The translations under genes and the position numbers were made by a program. This document shows positions 1,253 to 9,864 of a stretch of DNA of 10,263 bases, one piece after another. Under the pieces are notes generated by a model. The model saw only the letters and a program-made list of their open reading frames with translations, did not search any database and was not told the origin of the DNA. This DNA comes from a virus, in the UHGV virus genome UHGV-0135135; one strand, written 5' to 3'. Numbering within the stretch: position 1 is the stretch's first letter; every line of letters starts with the position of its first letter.

Positions 1253-1930
1253 CTATCCCTTCACAAAGGAGAAATTGCTCGCTGTTGCTTTTAGCGCGCC
1301 ACCAGCTTTCAGGGCTATATCACCATCAGCGGCGACGGTTACATTGCTGCCTTTTACATTAACGTCTCCATCTGAGGATACATTGGTTTTGCTGCTTGAT
1401 TTGACGTTAACCTCACCTCCAGCATTGAGCACTATATTCGCAGGGCCGATTATGTAAATCTGGCCGGATTCGTTCATCCCTATCCTTGAGCCTGCGGCGG
1501 TGTTTGCTATTTCATAGCCACCGCCAGCCGTTCTGACCTCAAGGATATTGTTTCTGTGAATAACAAAATCTTCAGTCGCCGAAAACTGGGGGCGGGCAGG
1601 AGCACCATCAACTTCTTCTGGCGACCATCCGCTTCCTTGTCCGGAGGCTTCCGGAGGCACATTTGGTACGCCTCCTGGGGCATCCTGCGCCGCGCCAACG
1701 ATTAAAGGTCGACGCGTGTCTATCCTGCCTTTAGCATCCAGATAAGGAAATTCGACCCAGACTAAATCGCCGCTGACTGTAGGTGTAAAGGCGTTACCGA
1801 TAGGCATTTGATACTCTGCCCATGGGAGGTCTTCATCCGGTACACCGTTCCAGTCAGGCAGTATGCGGACCTGCGCTCGCATAAGTCCGGCAGGGTGTTT
1901 GGTCCCTACGATTTGCGCTCTGCGTTTCAC
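1253..1930 (-). CDS. Hypothetical protein with gpV/gp5/VgrG-like OB-fold and Gly-rich beta-helix-like C-terminus (baseplate-spike-like)
   Basis: 225-aa ORF with a GTG start overlapping the stop of the upstream gene (GTGA) and AGGAG about 10 nt upstream. The N-terminal half (QVRILPDW...LPWAEYQMPIGNAFTPTVSGDLVWVEFPYLDAKGRIDTRRPLIVG) follows the pattern I recall for the spike OB-fold domain; the C-terminus has short repeats (NAGGEVNVK, SSDGDVNVKGSNVTV, AADGDIALKAGG). Family call is by motif recollection, not a search. Confidence 0.5.
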   Translation of the reverse strand: MKRRAQIVGTKHPAGLMRAQVRILPDWNGVPDEDLPWAEYQMPIGNAFTPTVSGDLVWVEFPYLDAKGRIDTRRPLIVGAAQDAPGGVPNVPPEASGQGSGWSPEEVDGAPARPQFSATEDFVIHRNNILEVRTAGGGYEIANTAAGSRIGMNESGQIYIIGPANIVLNAGGEVNVKSSSKTNVSSDGDVNVKGSNVTVAADGDIALKAGGALKATASNFSFVKG

Positions 1931-2907
1931 TGGTTGGGTACTCCTAATATCATTCGTGTTGTATAGCCGATCCGGTCCTCAAAATGGGCTACGTTTTTCA
2001 CCAGCAGCTTACGAGGCAACGATTCGTCCAGCTTATTTTCCTGGTCGTAACGATACACGAGGATCTCAATAACCATTCCCGGCGTGATGTCGGGATTACC
2101 TGCGACCTCAATATCCATTTTGGGTTCGAGCGACAATTGCATATTGCGCAGAGTTTCCATATCCGGATCGGATATATGGCGTATTGGGAGTGAGCTATCG
2201 CCATATTCGACATAGCCTTCAGTCATTGAATAGCCGGTAAATCGATACTGAGTATTTGCCGTAACGGCATACTCTTGCTGTATAAGCCTCATTTTTGAAA
2301 TCGTGTATTCCGCCCTGGGGTTGTTCCCTTCATAGGTGAATGATGGTTTAGCTTTCATAAGATCAGCTAATGTATAAAAGTTAAACTGACCACGGCAGGT
2401 CCAGCATAAAGCGCCTTTGTCGCGGGCCATTTCAGATAGCATTTTGGAGGGTTTTTCCCCAGCGGAAAGATGGTACGTACAGCTTCGTTTCAATGCGCTG
2501 GAGGAAACTTTCAGTGTACCGGTATACGTCTTGAAAATGGTATCAGACGTTTTGTTTGTATGCAGGTTAGCCCGTAGAGCGGGGATCTTAAATATCCGAA
2601 CGTCTTCACTGACTGCAATGACCGTAATGACATCACCAGCCAGCACCGCAGATGTTACGAAAAAAGTTGTTTTAAACGTGCCTGCATTGCCTTGTGGATC
2701 ACCCATCTCTGCAACCAGTGCTGCGCCGTATTTTGTTTTCCAGTCATCAATTATGGTGCCGGTAATATCGTGAATTTCCAGTTTCAGCAATGGTGCACGC
2801 AGGTTTGCCTTTTCCACATATACGGCAGTGAATATCCACCCCCTGGGCACTTTGTTTCCGTTGATGGTAACGGACTGTAGAAAGTATTGCTGTAGCTCCT
2901 GGGACAT
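1927..2907 (-). CDS. Hypothetical protein (326 aa), third gene of the coupled four-gene operon
   Basis: Long ORF with ATG at 2905-2907 and GGAG 6 nt upstream. Stop overlaps the downstream GTG start; start lies 4 nt after the upstream stop. No family recognised. Confidence 0.6.
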   Translation of the reverse strand: MSQELQQYFLQSVTINGNKVPRGWIFTAVYVEKANLRAPLLKLEIHDITGTIIDDWKTKYGAALVAEMGDPQGNAGTFKTTFFVTSAVLAGDVITVIAVSEDVRIFKIPALRANLHTNKTSDTIFKTYTGTLKVSSSALKRSCTYHLSAGEKPSKMLSEMARDKGALCWTCRGQFNFYTLADLMKAKPSFTYEGNNPRAEYTISKMRLIQQEYAVTANTQYRFTGYSMTEGYVEYGDSSLPIRHISDPDMETLRNMQLSLEPKMDIEVAGNPDITPGMVIEILVYRYDQENKLDESLPRKLLVKNVAHFEDRIGYTTRMILGVPNQ

Positions 2908-2910
2908 GGC

Positions 2911-3678
2911 TTACTCCATTCTCAGAGAGGTTTCAGTAATAATTCGTTTCGCGTCCAGCTCCCAGGCGGTGATCACGTCTGCTATAACACTAATTGCCGT
3001 TTGTGCAGCATAAATACGCTCTTCCCCAATTGGGGCTGAAACATCAGTAAAACTGATGTCTTTAGCATCCTGAATCGCGCAAATTAGCGGGACGGGGACT
3101 CGTACCAGCGGGGTTGTTGCTTCAAACTGCGTTCCTGCCATCAAGCGAAGGCGTGCTCCAAGCGAATTACACATCAGACTCATGGTCGCCTTATCCGTCG
3201 CCATTAACGTAACGTCATACGTCATATTTGCCTGGGTGTATTCCAGGGCTACTAAAGGCATACCGCTGCCAGGTTCGCAGAAGTGATCACAGCTTTTGCG
3301 GTCTATCTGCTGGTCATTGTTGATATAGCTGATATCCATTGAGCGCGAGATATTAATCAGAGGGAGTGCATCGCGATTAATGTTCGGATTCTCTGGCTTT
3401 CTCCCTTGCCCGGCATTCGCACGGCGAACCGCTTTAAGGAACTCGACCGCATTATCAAAACGGGCAACATAAACACGCTCTGCTGGTGAGCGATTCAGGA
3501 ATGATGCAAAGCGCTTTTCTTCTTTTGCAGGTTCCACCAGCGTTACGTCAGAAAAAATGTCGCTGATTAGCGTAGCAAAAGCGTTATCCACTCTTTCCAG
3601 ACCAGTTGTCTGGAATTTTCCAGTACGCGTTGTCTGCCACTCGCCAATGCGGGACAGTAGAGTTTTGTTAGGTGTCAT
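2911..3678 (-). CDS. Hypothetical protein (255 aa), second gene of the coupled four-gene operon
   Basis: ATG at 3676-3678 overlaps the upstream stop (ATGA), with GGAG 7 nt upstream. No family recognised. Confidence 0.6.
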   Translation of the reverse strand: MTPNKTLLSRIGEWQTTRTGKFQTTGLERVDNAFATLISDIFSDVTLVEPAKEEKRFASFLNRSPAERVYVARFDNAVEFLKAVRRANAGQGRKPENPNINRDALPLINISRSMDISYINNDQQIDRKSCDHFCEPGSGMPLVALEYTQANMTYDVTLMATDKATMSLMCNSLGARLRLMAGTQFEATTPLVRVPVPLICAIQDAKDISFTDVSAPIGEERIYAAQTAISVIADVITAWELDAKRIITETSLRME

Positions 3679-4547
3679 TCGATCACTCCGTTTTGAGTGG
3701 TATCAAAGTTCCTGGCCGGGATGCAGTAATAAAGGGAACCAACGTGTTGTGTTCCGTAGCTGAAGATTCGATGCACGTACCACCAGCGGCGGGCGAGGCC
3801 ATTCGCCATTTCTTCGTTCCATTCCAGGATTGAACCAACAGGTACGTTGTTTGCAGCAATACGCAGGATTAGCACTTCATCAGCAAGACCATCCTGTTCT
3901 CCATCGGCATCAATGGCATGAAACGAATCCCTTCCGTCCGGGTTATCCAGGACGTATACGATTTCCGGTTCCAGATAGGCAAGCTCACGCTGGTTGTTGT
4001 CCAGTAGCGTGAAAGACTCTTCACCTGTTTCATCGTTTACGACGCCATAGGAGCCATCAGCCGGGCGATATAAAAGCGCCTCGAATGCGTCAGGGCTTGA
4101 TTCAATAATGAGCATCCAATCGGCGCGGATCTGGTCGTTGAACGCTTTGTGTCCGTTATATCGGGTTTTAAGCTGCTGGTTTGGTTGTCTGTTAGCGAGC
4201 GATGCCGGTAGGGGGGCGATGTCAGGTTCAATCACTTCCGTAACAGAGTCACCAGCATTATCAGGCCAATTATCATGGCGGCTATCTGCTTCGGTGGCAG
4301 CGTGTTCTTCCAGAATACTGAATGGCCCTGTACTGACCTTCCCATTTTCCGTTGTGCTTCCTTCATTCGCTTCAACCGTCGTTGTCTCTTCTCTCTGCGT
4401 GCTGTCATGTTCTGTTCCCTTTCTCATCAGGCTTGCATCATCAGCAAACCATTCATCAAAACGGCCCATAAGCGTCCTCAAAGGTCGATTTATCAGGTAT
4501 CGAGGGGCATTGTCAGGAGATTGTGATTTCAATTCATATCCCAGCAT
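3675..4547 (-). CDS. Hypothetical, strongly acidic protein (290 aa as drawn), first gene of the four-gene operon
   Basis: Long ORF rich in Asp/Glu. The ATG at 4545-4547 has no Shine-Dalgarno and overlaps an operator-like half-site; an internal ATG at 4467-4469 has a good GAGGA 5 nt upstream and may be the true start (264 aa). No family recognised. Confidence 0.55.
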   Translation of the reverse strand: MLGYELKSQSPDNAPRYLINRPLRTLMGRFDEWFADDASLMRKGTEHDSTQREETTTVEANEGSTTENGKVSTGPFSILEEHAATEADSRHDNWPDNAGDSVTEVIEPDIAPLPASLANRQPNQQLKTRYNGHKAFNDQIRADWMLIIESSPDAFEALLYRPADGSYGVVNDETGEESFTLLDNNQRELAYLEPEIVYVLDNPDGRDSFHAIDADGEQDGLADEVLILRIAANNVPVGSILEWNEEMANGLARRWWYVHRIFSYGTQHVGSLYYCIPARNFDTTQNGVIE

Positions 4548-4560
4548 GGGACTAAAGTGC

Positions 4561-4589
4561 TTTACATTGTCCCATATTGGGACTACTAT
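4561..4589 (+). promoter_or_regulatory. Candidate sigma70 promoter of higB/higA with an operator palindrome GTCCCATATTGGGAC (4569-4583) in the spacer
   Basis: -35-like TTTACA (4561-4566), 17-bp spacer, -10-like TACTAT (4584-4589), then AAGGAA Shine-Dalgarno and ATG at 4614. The 15-bp perfect palindrome fills the spacer, and an extra TGGGAC half-site sits at 4547-4552. Palindromic operators overlapping the promoter are typical of autoregulated TA loci. Confidence 0.45.
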
Positions 4590-4613
4590 ACTTTCAGAGA
4601 GAAGGAATCTGTG

Positions 4614-4916
4614 ATGAAAATAATTTCGGTAAAAACACTAAGGGATTTCTGGGCGAAGAATCCCGATGCAGAACAGCCATTAAAGGCATGGGTTGATGAA
4701 GCAACAAAGGCTGACTGGAAAAATCCGGCTGAGATCAAAGAACAGTACCGGACAGCCAGCATCCTTAAAAACAGGCGCGTGGTGTTCAATATTAAGGGAA
4801 ATGATTACAGGTTAATTGTCGCAATTGCTTATCAGCGAGGATGGATGTTCGTTAAGTTTATTGGAACACATAAGGAATACGATGCCATTGACGCGGATAC
4901 AATAGAACTGGAGTAA
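4614..4916 (+). CDS. higB: HigB-family toxin (YgjN-like mRNA interferase)
   Basis: 100-aa ORF starting at the ATG with AAGGAA 6 nt upstream (the ORF-track start at 4557 is an upstream extension). C-terminal GTHKEYDAID motif and overall layout match my recollection of E. coli HigB (YgjN). Followed 3 nt later by the HTH antitoxin gene. Confidence 0.8.
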   Translation: MKIISVKTLRDFWAKNPDAEQPLKAWVDEATKADWKNPAEIKEQYRTASILKNRRVVFNIKGNDYRLIVAIAYQRGWMFVKFIGTHKEYDAIDADTIELE

Positions 4917-4919
4917 ATC

Positions 4920-5279
4920 ATGAACATTAAACCTATCCGTACAGAACAAGATTATGAGGCCGCACTGCGTGCGGTCGAACCGATGTTCGATAACGAACCG
5001 GAAATGAACACCCCGGAAGGTGATTTCTTTGAGGTCATGTGTCTTCTCATTGAGGAGTACGAGAAAAAACATTACCCAATTGAGCCACCATCACCTATTG
5101 AGGCCATTAAATTCCGTATGGAACAGCAAGGGCTGACCGTGAAGGATCTGGAACCGGCGATTGGTAAGTCAAATCGTGTTTACGAAGTGCTAAATGGAAC
5201 ACGAAATTTAACGTTACCTATGATTCGTCGTTTACATTCCCAGTTTGGCATTCCTCTTGAAAGCCTGGTTGGTGTATGA
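4920..5279 (+). CDS. higA: HigA-family antitoxin (YgjM-like, C-terminal HTH)
   Basis: 119-aa ORF with GGAG 7 nt upstream. The C-terminal block (KSNRVYEVLNGTRNLTLPMIRRLHSQFGIPLESL) parallels the HTH region I recall in E. coli HigA (YgjM). Toxin-first gene order. Confidence 0.8.
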   Translation: MNIKPIRTEQDYEAALRAVEPMFDNEPEMNTPEGDFFEVMCLLIEEYEKKHYPIEPPSPIEAIKFRMEQQGLTVKDLEPAIGKSNRVYEVLNGTRNLTLPMIRRLHSQFGIPLESLVGV

Positions 5280-5283
5280 GTTC

Positions 5284-5310
5284 GGCGGTCTGTATGACCG
5301 CCTTTGTTGT
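5284..5310 (+). terminator. Rho-independent terminator after higA
   Basis: 7-bp GC-rich stem GGCGGTC / GACCGCC with a 5-nt loop, followed by TTTGTTGT, starting 5 nt after the higA stop. No U-tract in the opposite orientation. Confidence 0.6.
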
Positions 5311-5313
5311 CAA

Positions 5314-6510
5314 TCAAGAACCTTTCTTCACGTACTCCATAAACATTTTTTCAGCTTGCCCAGGTGACGTTCCTGCCATGACCAGCGCATCAATGAACGC
5401 CTGCTTCTTCAGTGCGAACTGATCGGCAAGGCGTTGCTGAAGCTCCTTGTTTTTCTGTTTCTCACGTTGCAAGGCCGCTTCTTTTGCTGCCGCTCGTTTT
5501 TTCTGTGCGTCTGACAACTTTCTGGCCCTGGTCAGTTGGTCACGTAGCTTGTCGATCTTGCCGTTGTCCTTTGCCAGTTTTGAGCTTAAAGCGGCCTGGC
5601 GTTTCTGATAGAGCTTCCATTCACGTTTAGCTGCCTCAACATTCGTTTTGCTGCTACGGTTTCGATTGAACGCCTTCTCGTCTTCTTTTGTGAAGTGTTT
5701 TGTCGAGCGGCGGCGATCGTCACCAAAGGCAACTTGCGTTGCAGCTTTTTGCAGGGCGCGAGCAATACTCATCTGCCAACTGGCAGACTGTAGTCGTGTC
5801 ATTGAGTGGATCACATGTTTACAGGCGACGCCTTGCAGCTTAGGGTTGCGAACTTTTGGATAGGCGTATTCTTTTGGCGGGGCCAGGGCAAAGTTACCTG
5901 CAGTGGCGATGTAGCGATACCAGTATTGATGGCGACCGCAGTCACAGTCGAAAGACACTCGCCCGGCACACAGTGATTTTGTGACTTTCAGGGCTGATTT
6001 ATCGTCTTCTGCGATGTCATCGATCATCTGATCCCATTCTTCAAAACGTACCCGGACAATGTGGTGCTGGTGAACGGATATATCGGACGCTTCCACGCGG
6101 ATATTAATCACATTGTGACGAAGAGATACGGGCGTAGCTCTTTTGATACCAGAACCGTCGTCTACGGCGTTATTTGCTCGCTTAATATCGATAGCCTGGC
6201 TGGACGCTACCAGTTGTGCGTATGTAATGCCAGCCGTCTTGCTGTCGTATTTTTCGCGTGCTTTGCTTCGCAGCTTTTCGAAGCCTTTCAGATCGTCACG
6301 CGTAAAGAACGTGCCGCCTTTCTTTTTCCCCAGCTTAAGAATGTCGTCGGCTGATTTATTCCTAAGCCTGCCCGGCGTGAGTGTCCTGTGCGCCTGGCGG
6401 CGTTTGCGGTTTTGCTCTTTCCTGATGAGTTCAAATACGCGTGTGAAATCCTTAGAGGACAGGCCGTCAGTGATATATCGCCCGTCCTGATTTTTCAGGA
6501 AGTCAGGCAT
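5314..6510 (-). CDS. Hypothetical protein (398 aa) with a SWIM-like Cys/His cluster and a basic coiled-coil C-terminus
   Basis: Long ORF whose start overlaps the upstream 109-aa gene by 8 nt. Central FDCDCGRHQ...GVACKHVIHS resembles a CxC...CxH SWIM-type zinc finger. The C-terminal ~90 aa are K/R/A/Q/E-rich with heptad-like periodicity (AAAKEAALQREKQKNKELQQRLADQ). No family recognised. Confidence 0.6.
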   Translation of the reverse strand: MPDFLKNQDGRYITDGLSSKDFTRVFELIRKEQNRKRRQAHRTLTPGRLRNKSADDILKLGKKKGGTFFTRDDLKGFEKLRSKAREKYDSKTAGITYAQLVASSQAIDIKRANNAVDDGSGIKRATPVSLRHNVINIRVEASDISVHQHHIVRVRFEEWDQMIDDIAEDDKSALKVTKSLCAGRVSFDCDCGRHQYWYRYIATAGNFALAPPKEYAYPKVRNPKLQGVACKHVIHSMTRLQSASWQMSIARALQKAATQVAFGDDRRRSTKHFTKEDEKAFNRNRSSKTNVEAAKREWKLYQKRQAALSSKLAKDNGKIDKLRDQLTRARKLSDAQKKRAAAKEAALQREKQKNKELQQRLADQFALKKQAFIDALVMAGTSPGQAEKMFMEYVKKGS

Positions 6511-6832
6511 TTTCTATCTCCGGTGCCGAGCCAGCGTAATCGCGGATCTTGTTTCTTAGCCATGCTGCGTCAGGAAGAGTTAACGTTGTCCCTACCGGCA
6601 TTTCTTCCATTTCTGACTCATGGCCCACCAGCACACGAAATACCCAGCGCAAATCAGCGTTGCCATAGGCGCGATAGGCCGCCAGGTCTGAGCGATAAAC
6701 CTCATCAATTTTTATCGTGTACTGGAAATTATCGGAGTGATACTCCGATACCCGCTTGATCATCTCCTGATGGAATAGTGCGCGCAGCACATCGTCTTCA
6801 ATGCATCGATCGTCGAGCCTGCTGTAACTCAT
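6503..6832 (-). CDS. Hypothetical protein (109 aa), translationally coupled to the 398-aa gene
   Basis: ATG at 6830-6832 with GAGGAA 6 nt upstream; 3' end overlaps the start of the 398-aa gene. Segment DEVYRSDLAAYRAYGNADLRWVFRVLVGHESEMEEMPVGTTLTLPD loosely resembles LysM / phage tail-protein-X-like patterning; this is weak. Confidence 0.55.
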   Translation of the reverse strand: MSYSRLDDRCIEDDVLRALFHQEMIKRVSEYHSDNFQYTIKIDEVYRSDLAAYRAYGNADLRWVFRVLVGHESEMEEMPVGTTLTLPDAAWLRNKIRDYAGSAPEIENA

Positions 6833-8533: not shown

Positions 8534-8747
8534 GCTTTGGCGTTATGACTCCCTACCGCGCATCGGCTGAAAGTTAGTCGTCAAAAGAACCTTCAACGGG
8601 AGCCGTTTGCGCAATGGATTTTGTCCAGATTGTGATTTCCAGAATAGTGTCAACAATTTTTTTGAATTTTTTATTCGCGCTGAATTTGGCCTAAGTCATT
8701 TTGGCGGAGATGTTTTCTTTTGTAACATAAAACTTCAGTTTGTTTAC

Positions 8748-9377
8748 ATGAAGGATGGTTTTGTGAAGTTAAGGGTTTTGGGAGCAGTGCTCGCGGTTAT
8801 ATTGGGGGGAGTTTCTCTTAATGCTGCCTATGCAGGCGCGTTACCTGCAAAGTATGAGGCTGGACTGAAGGTGTTGCGAAACGCCAAAACAAACTATACG
8901 CCTGATGAAGTTTCAAACTATTGCCAGAAAGAAAATATCCCACTGAAACCTGTAGAGCCATTCTTTAAAAGCAACATTGAGTTCTGTGTATTGGCATATG
9001 CAGCAGATGAAACAGGCAAAGCCATACAAAAGACAGGGTATTCCACCAAAGACACAATGTCGGTGTTAAGTAACGGCGTGTTGCAGTTTGAGCTTTATCG
9101 TCAGCAAGGAATGGGAGATCTATTGCAGCCTTTGTATGTGCTGGCTTGGGTGCCTGAAGGGCAGCAGTTTCTTATCCGGAAAGGGATGCTTCGGCAAAGT
9201 GATGTGGCAGGATTCAATAACATGATGGAACTTGAACGATCCGCGAAGCAAAAACAAGCACCTAAGCAACCTACAGCGGAATGCATTCGTAGTGAGATCC
9301 AAAAGATATTAAGTGAGCAGCCTTACATTGATCGTGGGGTAGCCGAAGTCGCTGCAAAAATGGAATGTACTAATTAA
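8748..9377 (+). CDS. Hypothetical secreted or periplasmic protein with N-terminal signal peptide
   Basis: The ORF-track start at 8607 is almost certainly a non-coding AT-rich extension. Likely start is the ATG at 8748 or the GTG at 8763 (AAGGA 7 nt upstream), giving MKLRVLGAVLAVILGGVSLNAAYA followed by an AXA-type cleavage site. Mature part has 4 Cys. No family recognised. Confidence 0.6.
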   Translation: MKDGFVKLRVLGAVLAVILGGVSLNAAYAGALPAKYEAGLKVLRNAKTNYTPDEVSNYCQKENIPLKPVEPFFKSNIEFCVLAYAADETGKAIQKTGYSTKDTMSVLSNGVLQFELYRQQGMGDLLQPLYVLAWVPEGQQFLIRKGMLRQSDVAGFNNMMELERSAKQKQAPKQPTAECIRSEIQKILSEQPYIDRGVAEVAAKMECTN

Positions 9378-9384
9378 CCTCAAA

Positions 9385-9864
9385 TTGGATGAAAAGGCAA
9401 CAATGTCTGGAGTTAATGAAATGATACGCATAAAAAAAGAGAAACCATTTTCTTCAACAAAGACATCAAACTTGAATAAGCTGGCTATAGCGGCATTAAT
9501 GTTTTTTCCTTTGGTTGCTAATGCTGGGAATTTGCAGGTAAAGTGCGGTAGGTTTGATATAAAAATCTATCCGAACGCCATATTTCTGAATGGGAATAAG
9601 GTTGATAACGCGCACCGGAAAACTGAATCTGACGTAATGAGCTATGTGTTCCAGGAGTATGCCGAGATGGGGGGAACTTACACGTTGTACTCGCTGGATG
9701 TTCCTTCTCGCGGTGATATGACGTTATCTCATCAATGGCAGAACGCCGATGGCGAAGCTCTGCGCGAGGTTAAAACAGAAAAATGTGGCACTTTCCATTC
9801 TTTTAAAGGGAAAGCGCCCAATGTTAAATCTACGCTTGAAAAACAGCTTGCTGGTGAGCTTTAA
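9385..9864 (+). CDS. Hypothetical small secreted protein with signal peptide
   Basis: ORF begins 8 nt after the previous stop. Alternative ATG starts at 9385, 9403 and 9421; all precede a signal-peptide-like segment (KLAIAALMFFPLVANA then G). Two Cys in the mature part. No family recognised. Confidence 0.55.
   Translation: MDEKATMSGVNEMIRIKKEKPFSSTKTSNLNKLAIAALMFFPLVANAGNLQVKCGRFDIKIYPNAIFLNGNKVDNAHRKTESDVMSYVFQEYAEMGGTYTLYSLDVPSRGDMTLSHQWQNADGEALREVKTEKCGTFHSFKGKAPNVKSTLEKQLAGEL

Follow-up and report, generated by a model that had tools for sequence, protein, structure and literature searches.

A coupled four-gene block in a D6-like phage-plasmid sequence is very probably the promoter-distal part of a P1-family late morphogenetic operon

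The four-gene block

Four open reading frames on the minus strand (as longest open reading frames, positions 4547–3675, 3678–2911, 2907–1927 and 1930–1253) very probably belong, as its promoter-distal part, to the late morphogenetic operon 26-25-7-24-6-5 of the P1 family, here in a phage-plasmid of the D6 clade. They are homologues of P1 genes 7, 24, 6 and 5, i.e. ordinary virion genes of a common phage-plasmid family, and as such are already known. Judged by homology and gene order, the window (the whole stretch of 10,263 nucleotides that was analyzed) is part of a D6-like, P1-family phage-plasmid of Escherichia. Homology, gene order, coupling and the enrichment and positions of motifs are from the present analysis, and the structural roles are taken from published work on P1. 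Pfam and NCBIfam have no models for the four proteins; the assignments are based on PHROGs and on the P1 structures.

The first-pass annotation described four coupled open reading frames on the minus strand, and these are present. The gene 7/gene 24 junction is an ATGA overlap and the gene 6/gene 5 junction a GTGA overlap, as it had reported; the gap between genes 24 and 6, which it gave as 4 nt, measures 3 nt (GCC). Three of the genes had been credited with good Shine-Dalgarno sequences, but once the start of gene 7 is set at position 4469 all four genes are preceded by one. The corresponding junctions are a 4-nt overlap, a 3-nt gap and a 4-nt overlap in the D6 clade and a 14-nt overlap, a 1-nt gap and an 8-nt overlap in P1. 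Coupling is thus conserved across the family and is not due to chance. Translational coupling would help to hold the low-copy ring and trimer components at fixed ratios. A CRISPRi study of P1 scored genes 5, 6, 24 and 7 as essential.

The main value of these assignments is in annotation. Public annotations of such genes read “phage tail protein”, “baseplate” and even “tail length tape measure protein”. With the P1 structures available, they can be named precisely as stopper, terminator, hub and spike. The discovery value is small, as these are textbook-type virion genes whose P1 homologues have been solved by cryo-EM. For the D6 clade, the analysis also provides candidates for a late-promoter box and for a C1-type operator.

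Relatives of the element

D6 displays 81% nucleotide identity across 71% of the window, with a shared gene order, and synteny is complete throughout the region that the two have in common. In the D6 annotation the counterparts are labeled as similar to P1 genes 7, 24, 6, 5, 25 and 26. Twenty-two plasmids show 95–99% identity to the window, and the closest relatives are circular Escherichia plasmids of 89–94 kb that are approximately 97% identical; the window represents a sister lineage of D6. Matches to the window are found in 590 of the 5426 complete E. coli genomes, and 592 of the 615 matching places are on plasmids.

The approximately 97%-identical plasmids carry the full P1-type set of virion, replication, partition and immunity genes. 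Its virion part comprises portal, capsid, a 1656-nt tail gene that is syntenic with the D6 sheath gene, an unannotated block at the place of the P1 tube genes, the Sit transglycosylase, baseplate, fibres and terminase. The first-pass annotation had named a complete contractile-tail module beyond the window, or clear homology of all four proteins to known baseplate proteins, as the finding that would speak against an unusual role for the four genes; in substance this is what these plasmids and the homology of the four proteins to P1 virion proteins show.

As the window shows only 10 kb of this particular element, its completeness and its activity as a phage would be an extrapolation from these relatives. 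The four genes might be intact genes within a degraded P1- or D6-derived plasmid or integrated remnant that makes no virions, in which case the block would be functionless or decaying. Pfeifer and Rocha report that P1-like phage-plasmids become plain plasmids or integrated prophages through gene loss, and the other 23 of the 615 matching places are chromosomal. However, the six virion genes in the window all have the full length of their counterparts in D6, a phage that forms plaques, and are free of internal stop codons. Conservation extends to their coupling signals, Shine-Dalgarno sequences and promoter-like motifs, and the nearest relatives are the large circular plasmids with a complete virion set. 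A degraded element is therefore quite unlikely.

Gene 7 homologue: head-tail stopper

The longest open reading frame of the gene 7 homologue reaches position 4547, but the start is most likely the ATG at 4469, which is M27 of the long open reading frame. The protein is then 264 aa (positions 3675–4469, minus strand). ATG 4469 is preceded at 5 nt by a GAGGA Shine-Dalgarno sequence, the same start is used in D6 and the annotated relatives, and all 40 of the aligned family members begin with MGR[F/Y]DEW. The ATG at 4547 is the less likely start: it has no Shine-Dalgarno sequence, is part of a palindrome and precedes the candidate promoter described below.

The protein belongs to PHROG 1906 (E-value = 8.8e-110) and is 78% identical to D6 orf69 and 44% identical to P1 gp7. 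P1 Gp7 is the head-tail stopper of the connector as determined by cryo-EM (PMC12810830), and both sequence and fold of the homologue match this chain. The sequence match to PDB 9ums_B has an E-value of 2.4e-43. An AF2 model shows a helix at residues 108–124 and a beta-sandwich, and the best Foldseek match of this model is again 9ums_B, “P1 connector” (E-value = 2.5e-14, TM 0.66 on the target), followed by a T4 gp13-gp14 neck entry and then the phage 812 stopper, both matched weakly. By analogy with P1, the protein would form a stopper ring by which the portal-adaptor channel is closed and the head is docked to the tail.

The strong acidity that had been noted for this protein is real (pI 4.3–4.4, net charge −28 to −30) but is a family trait, common to P1 gp7 (pI 4.09) and the D6 homologue (pI 4.26), both of which are virion proteins. 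The acidity is mostly in an N-terminal linker that is hypervariable, differing in length and sequence among the 40 homologues, and that is predicted to be disordered; residues 10–78 of the model have a pLDDT <50. The N-terminal arm consists of the conserved MGR[F/Y]DEW tip followed by this hypervariable, strongly acidic linker of 40–130 residues. Homologues of gp7 were found only in P1/D6-type elements of Enterobacterales, in sequences that cluster around 80–100 kb.

From charge and conservation pattern one may speculate that the arm is a functional element and not a spacer, e.g. a polyanionic plug of the connector channel that helps to hold or gate the DNA end, or a segment that leaves with the DNA and for a time decoys DNA-binding defences of the host. 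This is very unlikely.

The first-pass annotation had raised the possibility that the acidic protein acts against restriction as a DNA mimic, with the block as an anti-defence system or an early accessory operon. The charge itself (pI 4.3, net charge −30) is in keeping with this. The N-terminal 80 or so residues do not align with P1 gp7 and are in a part that is unmodelled in the P1 structure; of the 242 gp7 residues, 158 were built in the connector chain. Ocr, ArdA and other known DNA mimics are folded proteins. The acidic stretch of the gp7 homologue is predicted to be disordered, no DNA mimic is present among the PDB Foldseek matches of the model, and the part that is folded matches neck proteins, the P1 stopper among them. 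In addition, an Ocr- or ArdA-type mimic would display a folded, acidic, B-DNA-like surface and be expressed early, whereas this gene has a late-type motif upstream and structural genes as neighbors. The likeness to T7 Ocr and ArdA is limited to the strongly negative net charge, and a mimic is extremely unlikely. The stopper reading accounts for the acidic stretch as a variable linker, predicted to be disordered, of a neck protein in a late structural context.

Gene 24 and gene 6 homologues: tail terminator and baseplate hub

The gene 24 homologue (positions 2911–3678, minus strand) encodes 255 aa and matches PHROG 1767 with an E-value of 2.3e-107. P1 gp24 is the tail terminator, with a core domain at residues 23–244 (PMC10304247), and the homology covers the core domain of this terminator as solved in situ: residues 14–235 align with residues 16–239 of the 261 in PDB 8jan_y (E-value = 1.7e-17). 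Identity is 85% with D6 orf68 and 22% with P1 gp24, the P1 alignment being full length and significant. The protein would be a hexameric, T4 gp15-like terminator that caps tube and sheath.

The gene 6 homologue (positions 1927–2907, minus strand) encodes 326 aa and matches PHROG 1390 (E-value = 1e-132). Its similarity to the hub solved in situ, PDB 9vzk_1 Gp6, is full length, residues 6–325 of 326 (E-value = 1.3e-72), and it is 83% identical to D6 orf67 and 38% identical to P1 gp6. It would form the trimeric baseplate hub, comparable to T4 gp27 and Mu gp44, the base on which the tube is built.

Gene 5 homologue: central spike

The gene 5 homologue (positions 1253–1930, minus strand) has a translated sequence of 225 aa and was taken at first reading for a gp5-type spike. 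This is supported by homology to the structurally solved P1 Gp5, which is significant and full length: positions 2–199 align with positions 7–200 of PDB 9vzk_q (E-value = 1.5e-53). Identity is 78% with D6 orf66 and 45% with P1 gp5. The GTG start codon is supported by the N-terminal conservation with P1 gp5, which begins at residue 2. The sequence also matches PHROG 430, “baseplate hub subunit and tail lysozyme” (8e-43), at profile positions 20–252 of 868, and its C-terminal region, positions 150–225, displays weak matches to VgrG and central-spike beta-helices. The predicted layout lacks a lysozyme domain between the N-terminal OB-fold part and the C-terminal beta-helix, and the protein would assemble as a trimeric spike of this type. 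P1 gp5 likewise has no lysozyme domain (P1 cryo-EM and proteomics papers, including PMC12810830), and it is Sit, the tape-measure protein, that is credited with the muralytic activity of P1.

The spike gene had been described as an orphan. No sheath, tube or tape-measure gene is present in the 10,263-nt window, and to that extent the description holds; homologues of genes 25 and 26 are however found in the same window. The window also has no PAAR gene, and the hub gene adjoins the spike gene; D6 encodes a PAAR-motif protein that is annotated as similar to P1 upfC. P1-type phages scatter their tail genes over several late operons.

A remnant tail module and an early accessory cluster had both been considered at first reading. 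Neither is supported, the four proteins being clear homologues of P1 virion proteins, Gp7, Gp24, Gp6 and Gp5, all solved by cryo-EM (PDB 9ums, 8jan and 9vzk).

Candidate late promoter

A candidate Lpa-type late promoter is located at positions 4509–4529 on the minus strand. It consists of the box AAATCACAA (4529–4521), a 6-nt spacer and a −10-like GACAAT (4514–4509), and it lies within a block of approximately 65 nt that is conserved just 5′ of gene 7 in every relative, regardless of the cargo. A complete 94-kb relative has 12 occurrences of the motif, defined as the box with at most one mismatch, N6 and nAnnnT, compared with 1.7 ± 1.6 in shuffled sequences. Of these, 10 precede late operons on the coding strand: portal, dar/head, lysozyme, R/S fibres, pmgB-sit, capsid, upfC, gene 7 and mat. 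At gene 26 the box of the copy is mismatched at two positions. Within the D6 stretch, mat, gene 7, upfC and gene 23 are the only genes preceded by the motif. Neither a generic sigma-70 scan nor a search with the P1 LP26 pattern yielded hits above the chance level. The distribution of the motif suggests that the four genes are served by their own Lpa-type late promoter, approximately 40 nt upstream of ATG 4469.

Genes 26 and 25 and the cargo cassette

Upstream of the block, on the same strand, are homologues of P1 gene 26 (positions 6832–6503), the baseplate plug, and of gene 25 (positions 6510–5314). Both match PHROGs (1269 and 1722), and the former matches Gp26 in PDB 9ay5_S/9vzk (2.4e-18). 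Their products are 92% and 95% identical to those of D6 and 43% and 55% identical to those of P1, respectively. Genes 26 and 25 (positions 5314–6832) are the upstream half of the ancestral 26-25-7-24-6-5 operon, split off by a cargo cassette. No place in the P1 structure is assigned to gp25, a conserved SWIM-zinc-finger protein.

Genes of the toxin-antitoxin (TA) type occupy a cargo slot at the gene 25/gene 7 junction, where the D6 clade has a cassette on the opposite strand. In the window this is a two-gene HigB/HTH pair at positions 4611–5279; in D6 the slot has RelE/HigA, a regulator and a hypothetical gene. A second HigBA pair is found upstream of gene 26 in the window. The first cassette protein matches component A of PD-lambda-2 (3.5e-42). 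This defence system requires a HigB-like A, a B with Xre-HTH and a C-terminal peptidase, and a P4-antitoxin-like C. The second cassette protein covers positions 1–119 of the 402-position B profile and has no peptidase, and the third gene is absent, as only 34 nt (5280–5313) separate the cassette gene from the gene 25 stop codon. A complete PD-lambda-2 was thus rejected, and the cassette is a HigB/HTH pair related to this system but incomplete.

An exclusion or anti-defence role for the block, with the spike and its neighbors as a stand-alone device or as a tailocin-, eCIS- or T6SS-like fragment, could point to the VgrG similarity and the adjoining TA-type genes, but it is barely credible, as that similarity is marginal (E-values 0.014 and 0.0023, vs. 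1.5e-53 to the P1 spike), the gp7 homologues were found only in P1/D6-type elements, the TA genes are a variable insertion absent from P1, and the four proteins, all homologous to P1 virion proteins, match zero families among the PADLOC defence models at E-values up to 0.01.

Palindrome, rdgC and methyltransferase genes

The interval between gene 5 and rdgC has a palindrome at positions 1201–1244, with 18-nt arms that are 94% complementary and an 8-nt spacer. Its RNA fold has a free energy of −18.5 kcal/mol (z = −5.0). The palindrome is conserved in five relatives, and the D6 group shows compensatory changes in the outer stem. The core, TGTGTTAGA, is found in 8 exact copies in the 94-kb relative, where about 0.7 would be expected from length alone, and the copies sit at or between gene ends. 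Among them are paired sites upstream of ref and of the pdcB-like gene, whereas the repressor gene is preceded, at 30 nt, by a single site. These placements parallel those of the P1 C1 operators, and the reverse complement of the core resembles the P1 C1 operator ATTGCTCTAATAAATTT. The palindrome is probably a bivalent C1-type operator, and possibly also a hairpin at the transcript end.

Beyond it, on the minus strand, is rdgC (positions 288–1193; Pfam RdgC, 1.4e-100), the homologue of P1 hrdC, with a product that is 77% identical to that of D6 and 51% identical to P1 HrdC. This is followed by the N-terminus of a C5 cytosine methyltransferase (positions 1–304, cut by the window edge; PF00145, 4.8e-17), which displays the PCQ motif in GGTPCQAFS. 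Its GTG start at 304 overlaps the rdgC stop codon by 17 nt, and the D6 overlap is identical. The order of spike gene, rdgC and methyltransferase is thus as first annotated. The tail genes do not, however, appear to run on into the recombination genes as had been proposed. The equivalent operon of P1 carries Odmt/Pdmt, so that hrdC-dmt has its own C1-controlled promoter; this, together with the conserved operator-like palindrome, indicates that the tail block and rdgC-methyltransferase appear to be two separate operons. The block would end at the palindrome, and an rdgC-methyltransferase operon, separately regulated like hrdC-dmt, would start there.

Comparison with known systems

The closest known system is D6, where orf69–orf66 are the homologues of P1 genes 7, 24, 6 and 5 and are followed by hrdC-like and methyltransferase genes. 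Order, orientation and junctions are identical to those in the window, and both have the late-promoter-like box 5′ of gene 7 and the palindrome 3′ of gene 5. The four proteins are 78–85% identical, and the window spike is 8 residues longer.

P1 has the four homologous proteins in the same order and translationally coupled, with identities to the window of 22–45%. In P1 the six genes 26-25-7-24-6-5 are contiguous, downstream of ban-dbn and under promoter LP26, unlike the window, where the cargo slot splits the operon after gene 25. The late box also differs in sequence and in its spacing from the −10, being AAATCACAA-N6 in the window and AAATGACTA-N4 in P1 LP26. The rdgC and methyltransferase genes adjoin the block in the window, whereas their P1 counterparts are approximately 7 kb away and oppositely oriented.

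The counterpart genes of T4 are not known to be organized as a single four-gene operon. Sequence similarity to the T4, Mu and phage 812 counterparts is limited to weak beta-helix matches, and the lysozyme domain is not part of the window spike. The correspondence is one of architecture: according to the P1 structure papers gp5, gp6 and gp24 are the equivalents of T4 gp5, gp27 and gp15, and the T4 gp5/gp27 and Mu gp45/gp44 spike-hub complexes, T4 gp15, and the T4 gp14 and phage 812 stoppers are the architectural equivalents of the proteins encoded by the block.

Relationship to D6 and the P1 family

Among phage records, megablast matches the window to D6, an Escherichia phage of the P1 family, with 81% identity over 71% of the window. 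The D6 gene order is that of the window; the depositors' labels are 'similar to P1 gene 7', '24', '6' and '5', followed by an hrdC-like gene and a methyltransferase. In the plasmid collection 589 records match the window and 22 of these are 95%–99% identical, the closest plasmids among the matches listed being non-mobilizable circles of about 89–94 kb. A match is present in 590 of 5426 complete E. coli genomes, and 592 of the 615 matching places are plasmid-borne. NZ_CP099353 (94 kb, 97% identical), which was examined in full, has genes for terminase, portal, capsid and a Sit-type transglycosylase, and also carries baseplate and fibre genes, a repressor, and replication and partition genes. 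A 1656-nt 'phage tail protein' gene is syntenic with the D6 sheath gene, and an unannotated block is at the P1 tube-gene position. The window is a member of the D6 clade of P1-family phage-plasmids, a group previously described in the literature. Whether the copy in this window sits in an intact element carries residual uncertainty.

The four-gene block

The block is on the minus strand and consists of open reading frames at positions 4547–3675 (290 aa, the longest open reading frame of the first gene), 3678–2911 (255 aa), 2907–1927 (326 aa) and 1930–1253 (225 aa), which are homologues of P1 genes 7, 24, 6 and 5. As read from the sequence, the first and second overlap at ATGA, the second and third are separated as TAA-GCC-ATG, and the third and fourth overlap at GTGA. 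The three internal starts each have GGAG or AGGAG 6–10 nt upstream. Downstream of the block is rdgC (1193–288, minus strand; Pfam RdgC, 1.4e-100), and the 5′ part of a C5 cytosine methyltransferase gene (minus strand; PF00145, 4.8e-17; PCQ motif) starts at GTG 304, which overlaps the rdgC stop by 17 nt. The first-pass annotation had described four coupled open reading frames followed by these two genes. By the junctions and the Pfam matches this description is essentially right and the observation holds after minor corrections: the ATGA and GTGA junctions stand, however the gap given as 4 nt is three bases, GCC.

Pfam and NCBIfam scans assigned no family to the four proteins, models being absent; the single NCBIfam match of the spike, to VgrG, is sub-threshold. 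All four are in 'tail' families of PHROGs (E-values 8e-43 to 1e-132). The protein encoded at 4469–3675 matches Gp7 (PDB 9ums_B, 2.4e-43), the head-tail stopper of P1, and that at 3678–2911 matches the tail terminator Gp24 (PDB 8jan_y, 1.7e-17). The products of 2907–1927 and 1930–1253 match the baseplate hub Gp6 (PDB 9vzk_1, 1.3e-72) and the central spike Gp5 (PDB 9vzk_q, 1.5e-53). The P1 roles are from cryo-EM (PMC12810830, PMC10304247) and from proteomics with HHpred (PMC9024508). According to these sources gp7 caps the adaptor as a hexameric stopper and docks onto the terminator; gp24 is a hexameric tail terminator, gp6 is a trimeric hub, and gp5 is a trimeric spike that resembles T4 gp5 but is without the lysozyme domain. 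The four proteins are 78%–85% identical to those of D6 and 22%–45% identical to those of P1, and genes 5, 6, 24 and 7 are essential in a P1 CRISPRi screen. Since the P1 homologues are stopper, terminator, hub and spike, the block encodes two head-proximal and two distal tail proteins, not four baseplate proteins.

In related plasmids the hub gene (1927–2907, minus strand) is often annotated as 'tail length tape measure protein', a name taken over from the old 'tail length' phenotype of P1; the actual tape measure is Sit.

Start and acidity of the gene 7 homologue

The true start of the gene 7 homologue is almost certainly ATG 4469. This codon is preceded by a GAGGA Shine-Dalgarno sequence, the gene begins at the equivalent site in D6 and in PGAP-annotated relatives, and the PHROG profile match begins here. 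The N-terminus MGR[F/Y]DEW is found in 40 of 40 aligned homologues and echoes MAGFFDDMF of P1 gp7. ATG 4547 is without a Shine-Dalgarno sequence and is inside the first of two TCCCAnnnTGGGAC palindromes, which argues against it as the start; these palindromes belong to the divergent higB promoter region.

The first-pass annotation noted that the first gene is strongly acidic, which is borne out (pI 4.3–4.4, net charge −28 to −30), and suggested a DNA mimic. This acidity is common to P1 gp7 (pI 4.09) and D6 orf69 (pI 4.26), the gene 7 homologue of that phage. The family alignment displays a conserved tip, then a linker variable in length and sequence, and a conserved domain from about residue 85 to the C-terminus. 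An AlphaFold2 model built with this alignment has pLDDT below 50 at residues 10–78, followed by a helix and a beta-sandwich. The top Foldseek match of the model is the P1 connector chain 9ums_B (E-value = 2.5e-14), in which 158 of the 242 gp7 residues are built; a T4 gp13-gp14 neck entry, the phiCD508 neck and the phage 812 stopper rank next, and no DNA mimic is among the Foldseek matches. A DNA-mimic identity is therefore rejected, because the acidity is shared with P1 and D6, the linker is variable and of low pLDDT, and the fold is that of the P1 connector. An anti-defence function for the four genes was also proposed; a PADLOC test went against it, and a defence-system identity was rejected.

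Genes 26 and 25 and candidate accessory-gene slots

Contrary to the first-pass annotation, the spike gene is not an orphan. Homologues of gene 26 (6832–6503, minus strand; six-fold baseplate plug; PDB 9ay5/9vzk Gp26, 2.4e-18) and gene 25 (6510–5314, minus strand) are in the window, and P1 groups all six genes, 26-25-7-24-6-5, contiguously behind the late promoter LP26. The P1 tail and baseplate genes are scattered over the genome (PMC9024508), thus it is unsurprising that a 10-kb window has no sheath or tube genes.

P1 has genes 25 and 7 side by side, with no cargo between them, and in the D6 clade an opposite-strand cargo cassette separates the two. The window has a HigB toxin gene here (4611–4916, plus strand; PF09907, 3.4e-34) that matches PD-lambda-2 component A, and an HTH protein gene (4920–5279, plus strand) that matches the first 119 of 402 positions of component B. 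The cassette has no peptidase domain and no component C, both of which are necessary for PD-lambda-2 defence in published work. A complete PD-lambda-2 system at 4611–5279 is rejected since these are missing, and the cassette is a two-gene relative of that system. A terminator-like hairpin is found at 5284–5302. The two TCCCAnnnTGGGAC palindromes (4539–4563 and 4570–4594, 31 bp apart) overlap a sigma-70-like TTTACA-17-TACTAT sequence (4561–4589, plus strand) just upstream of higB, and are probably antitoxin operators.

The cargo at this junction differs among relatives, as compared between the window (5280–5313 and 4470–4610) and the comparison loci L001 (16149–18262), L003 (23884–24799, of NZ_CP099353), L005 (4481–6122), L006 (4743–6910) and L007 (4743–6378). 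One relative has the same HigB/HTH pair and a 245-aa open reading frame, one has RelE/HigA with a regulator and a hypothetical gene, and one has a 'stationary phase growth adaptation protein'. The junction appears to be a slot for accessory genes, interrupting a late structural operon.

A second pair, a HigB-like toxin (7559–7215, minus strand; PF05015, 1.2e-20) and a HigA antitoxin (7218–6925, minus strand; TIGR02607, 1.3e-28), is inserted directly upstream of gene 26. It is also in L006 and is absent from D6, L003, L005 and L007. The region 8607–9864 is possibly a further variable slot, with genes for exported proteins. It has two plus-strand open reading frames, 8607–9377 (PHROG 12786, matched from residue 48) and 9385–9864 (PHROG 13864, matched from residue 30), in each of which a hydrophobic signal-peptide-like segment coincides with the start of the PHROG match. 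D6 has a SimB-like gene at this position; homology of 8607–9377 to it was rejected, as there is no similarity (E-value = 18).

Candidate late promoter

The roughly 65 nt immediately upstream of gene 7 are conserved irrespective of the adjoining cargo. Within this block is a candidate late promoter, AAATCACAA-N6-GACAAT (4529–4509, minus strand). The same arrangement precedes mat (8638–8618, minus strand) and a two-mismatch version precedes gene 26 (6884–6864, minus strand). Counted as a box with at most one mismatch, N6 and nAnnnT (consensus AAAT[C/A]ACA[A/C]-N6-nAnnnT), the motif has 12 copies in NZ_CP099353, against 1.7 ± 1.6 in shuffled sequence. Of these copies, ten precede late operons on the coding strand (portal, dar/head, lysozyme, R/S fibres, pmgB-sit, capsid, upfC-upfB, gene 7 and mat). 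Motif positions in this relative (L002 and L003) are 21513, 27533, 34718, 45706, 53216, 61790, 64545, 73945, 76379 and 77468. In a 33-kb D6 stretch the motif is found only before mat, gene 7, upfC and gene 23, and the P1 stretch examined has no copy.

P1 has 11 late promoters with a common 9-bp Lpa box; the annotated LP26 is AAATGACTA-N4-TAGAAT. Because the motif is found ahead of almost every late morphogenetic operon in the D6 clade and the P1 late promoters share the Lpa box, we infer that it is a candidate clade-specific version of the Lpa-dependent late promoter. The four genes would then form a late operon with its own promoter. The LP26 pattern has 14 matches in the window vs 9.1 expected, none usefully placed, and a generic sigma-70 scan gave fewer sites than shuffles.

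Palindrome between gene 5 and rdgC

Gene 5 and rdgC are 59 nt apart, and in this interval is a palindrome with 18-nt arms (1201–1244). As RNA it has −18.5 kcal/mol (z = −5.0). It is kept in relatives, with compensatory changes of the outer stem in the D6 group. The palindrome core TGTGTTAGA has eight exact copies in NZ_CP099353 vs about 0.7 expected from length alone. These are single or paired, at or between gene ends, and include sites upstream of ref, upstream of a pdcB-like gene and 30 nt upstream of the repressor gene. The reverse complement of the core resembles the P1 C1 operator ATTGCTCTAATAAATTT. A dispersed motif, T[G/A]TGTTAGAAAA[T/C]TAA, is similar to the reverse complement of the P1 C1 operator. 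It is present at 1201–1244 in the window, and in NZ_CP099353 (L002 and L003) it occurs both as single copies and as inverted pairs, located at gene ends or between them, at 2400, 10680/10713, 13013, 21448, 23569, 24754, 61830/61865, 70620/70653, 81559/81592 and 84783/84816. It is a candidate operator for the D6-clade repressor.

A canonical intrinsic terminator was not detected at the palindrome. Because the stem is AT-rich and the D6 group is without a following T-run, an operator is favoured over a terminator; an additional, secondary function as an RNA hairpin is possible. In P1 the promoter Pdmt, controlled by the C1 operator Odmt, drives the hrdC-dmt operon. Read most simply, rdgC and the methyltransferase gene would be a separate C1-repressed operon. 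The tail block does abut these genes, however the operon described as running into them would be separated from them functionally by the operator-like palindrome. The promoter and operator assignments are motif-based, with residual uncertainty as to whether they are correct.

Comparison with known systems

The earlier view, in which the spike was an orphan or the block a possible anti-defence system, is not supported, as the four proteins match P1 virion chains. With close annotated relatives and solved homologous structures, the block is already known: it is a late virion operon of a familiar kind, and the phage-plasmid family that carries it is very common.
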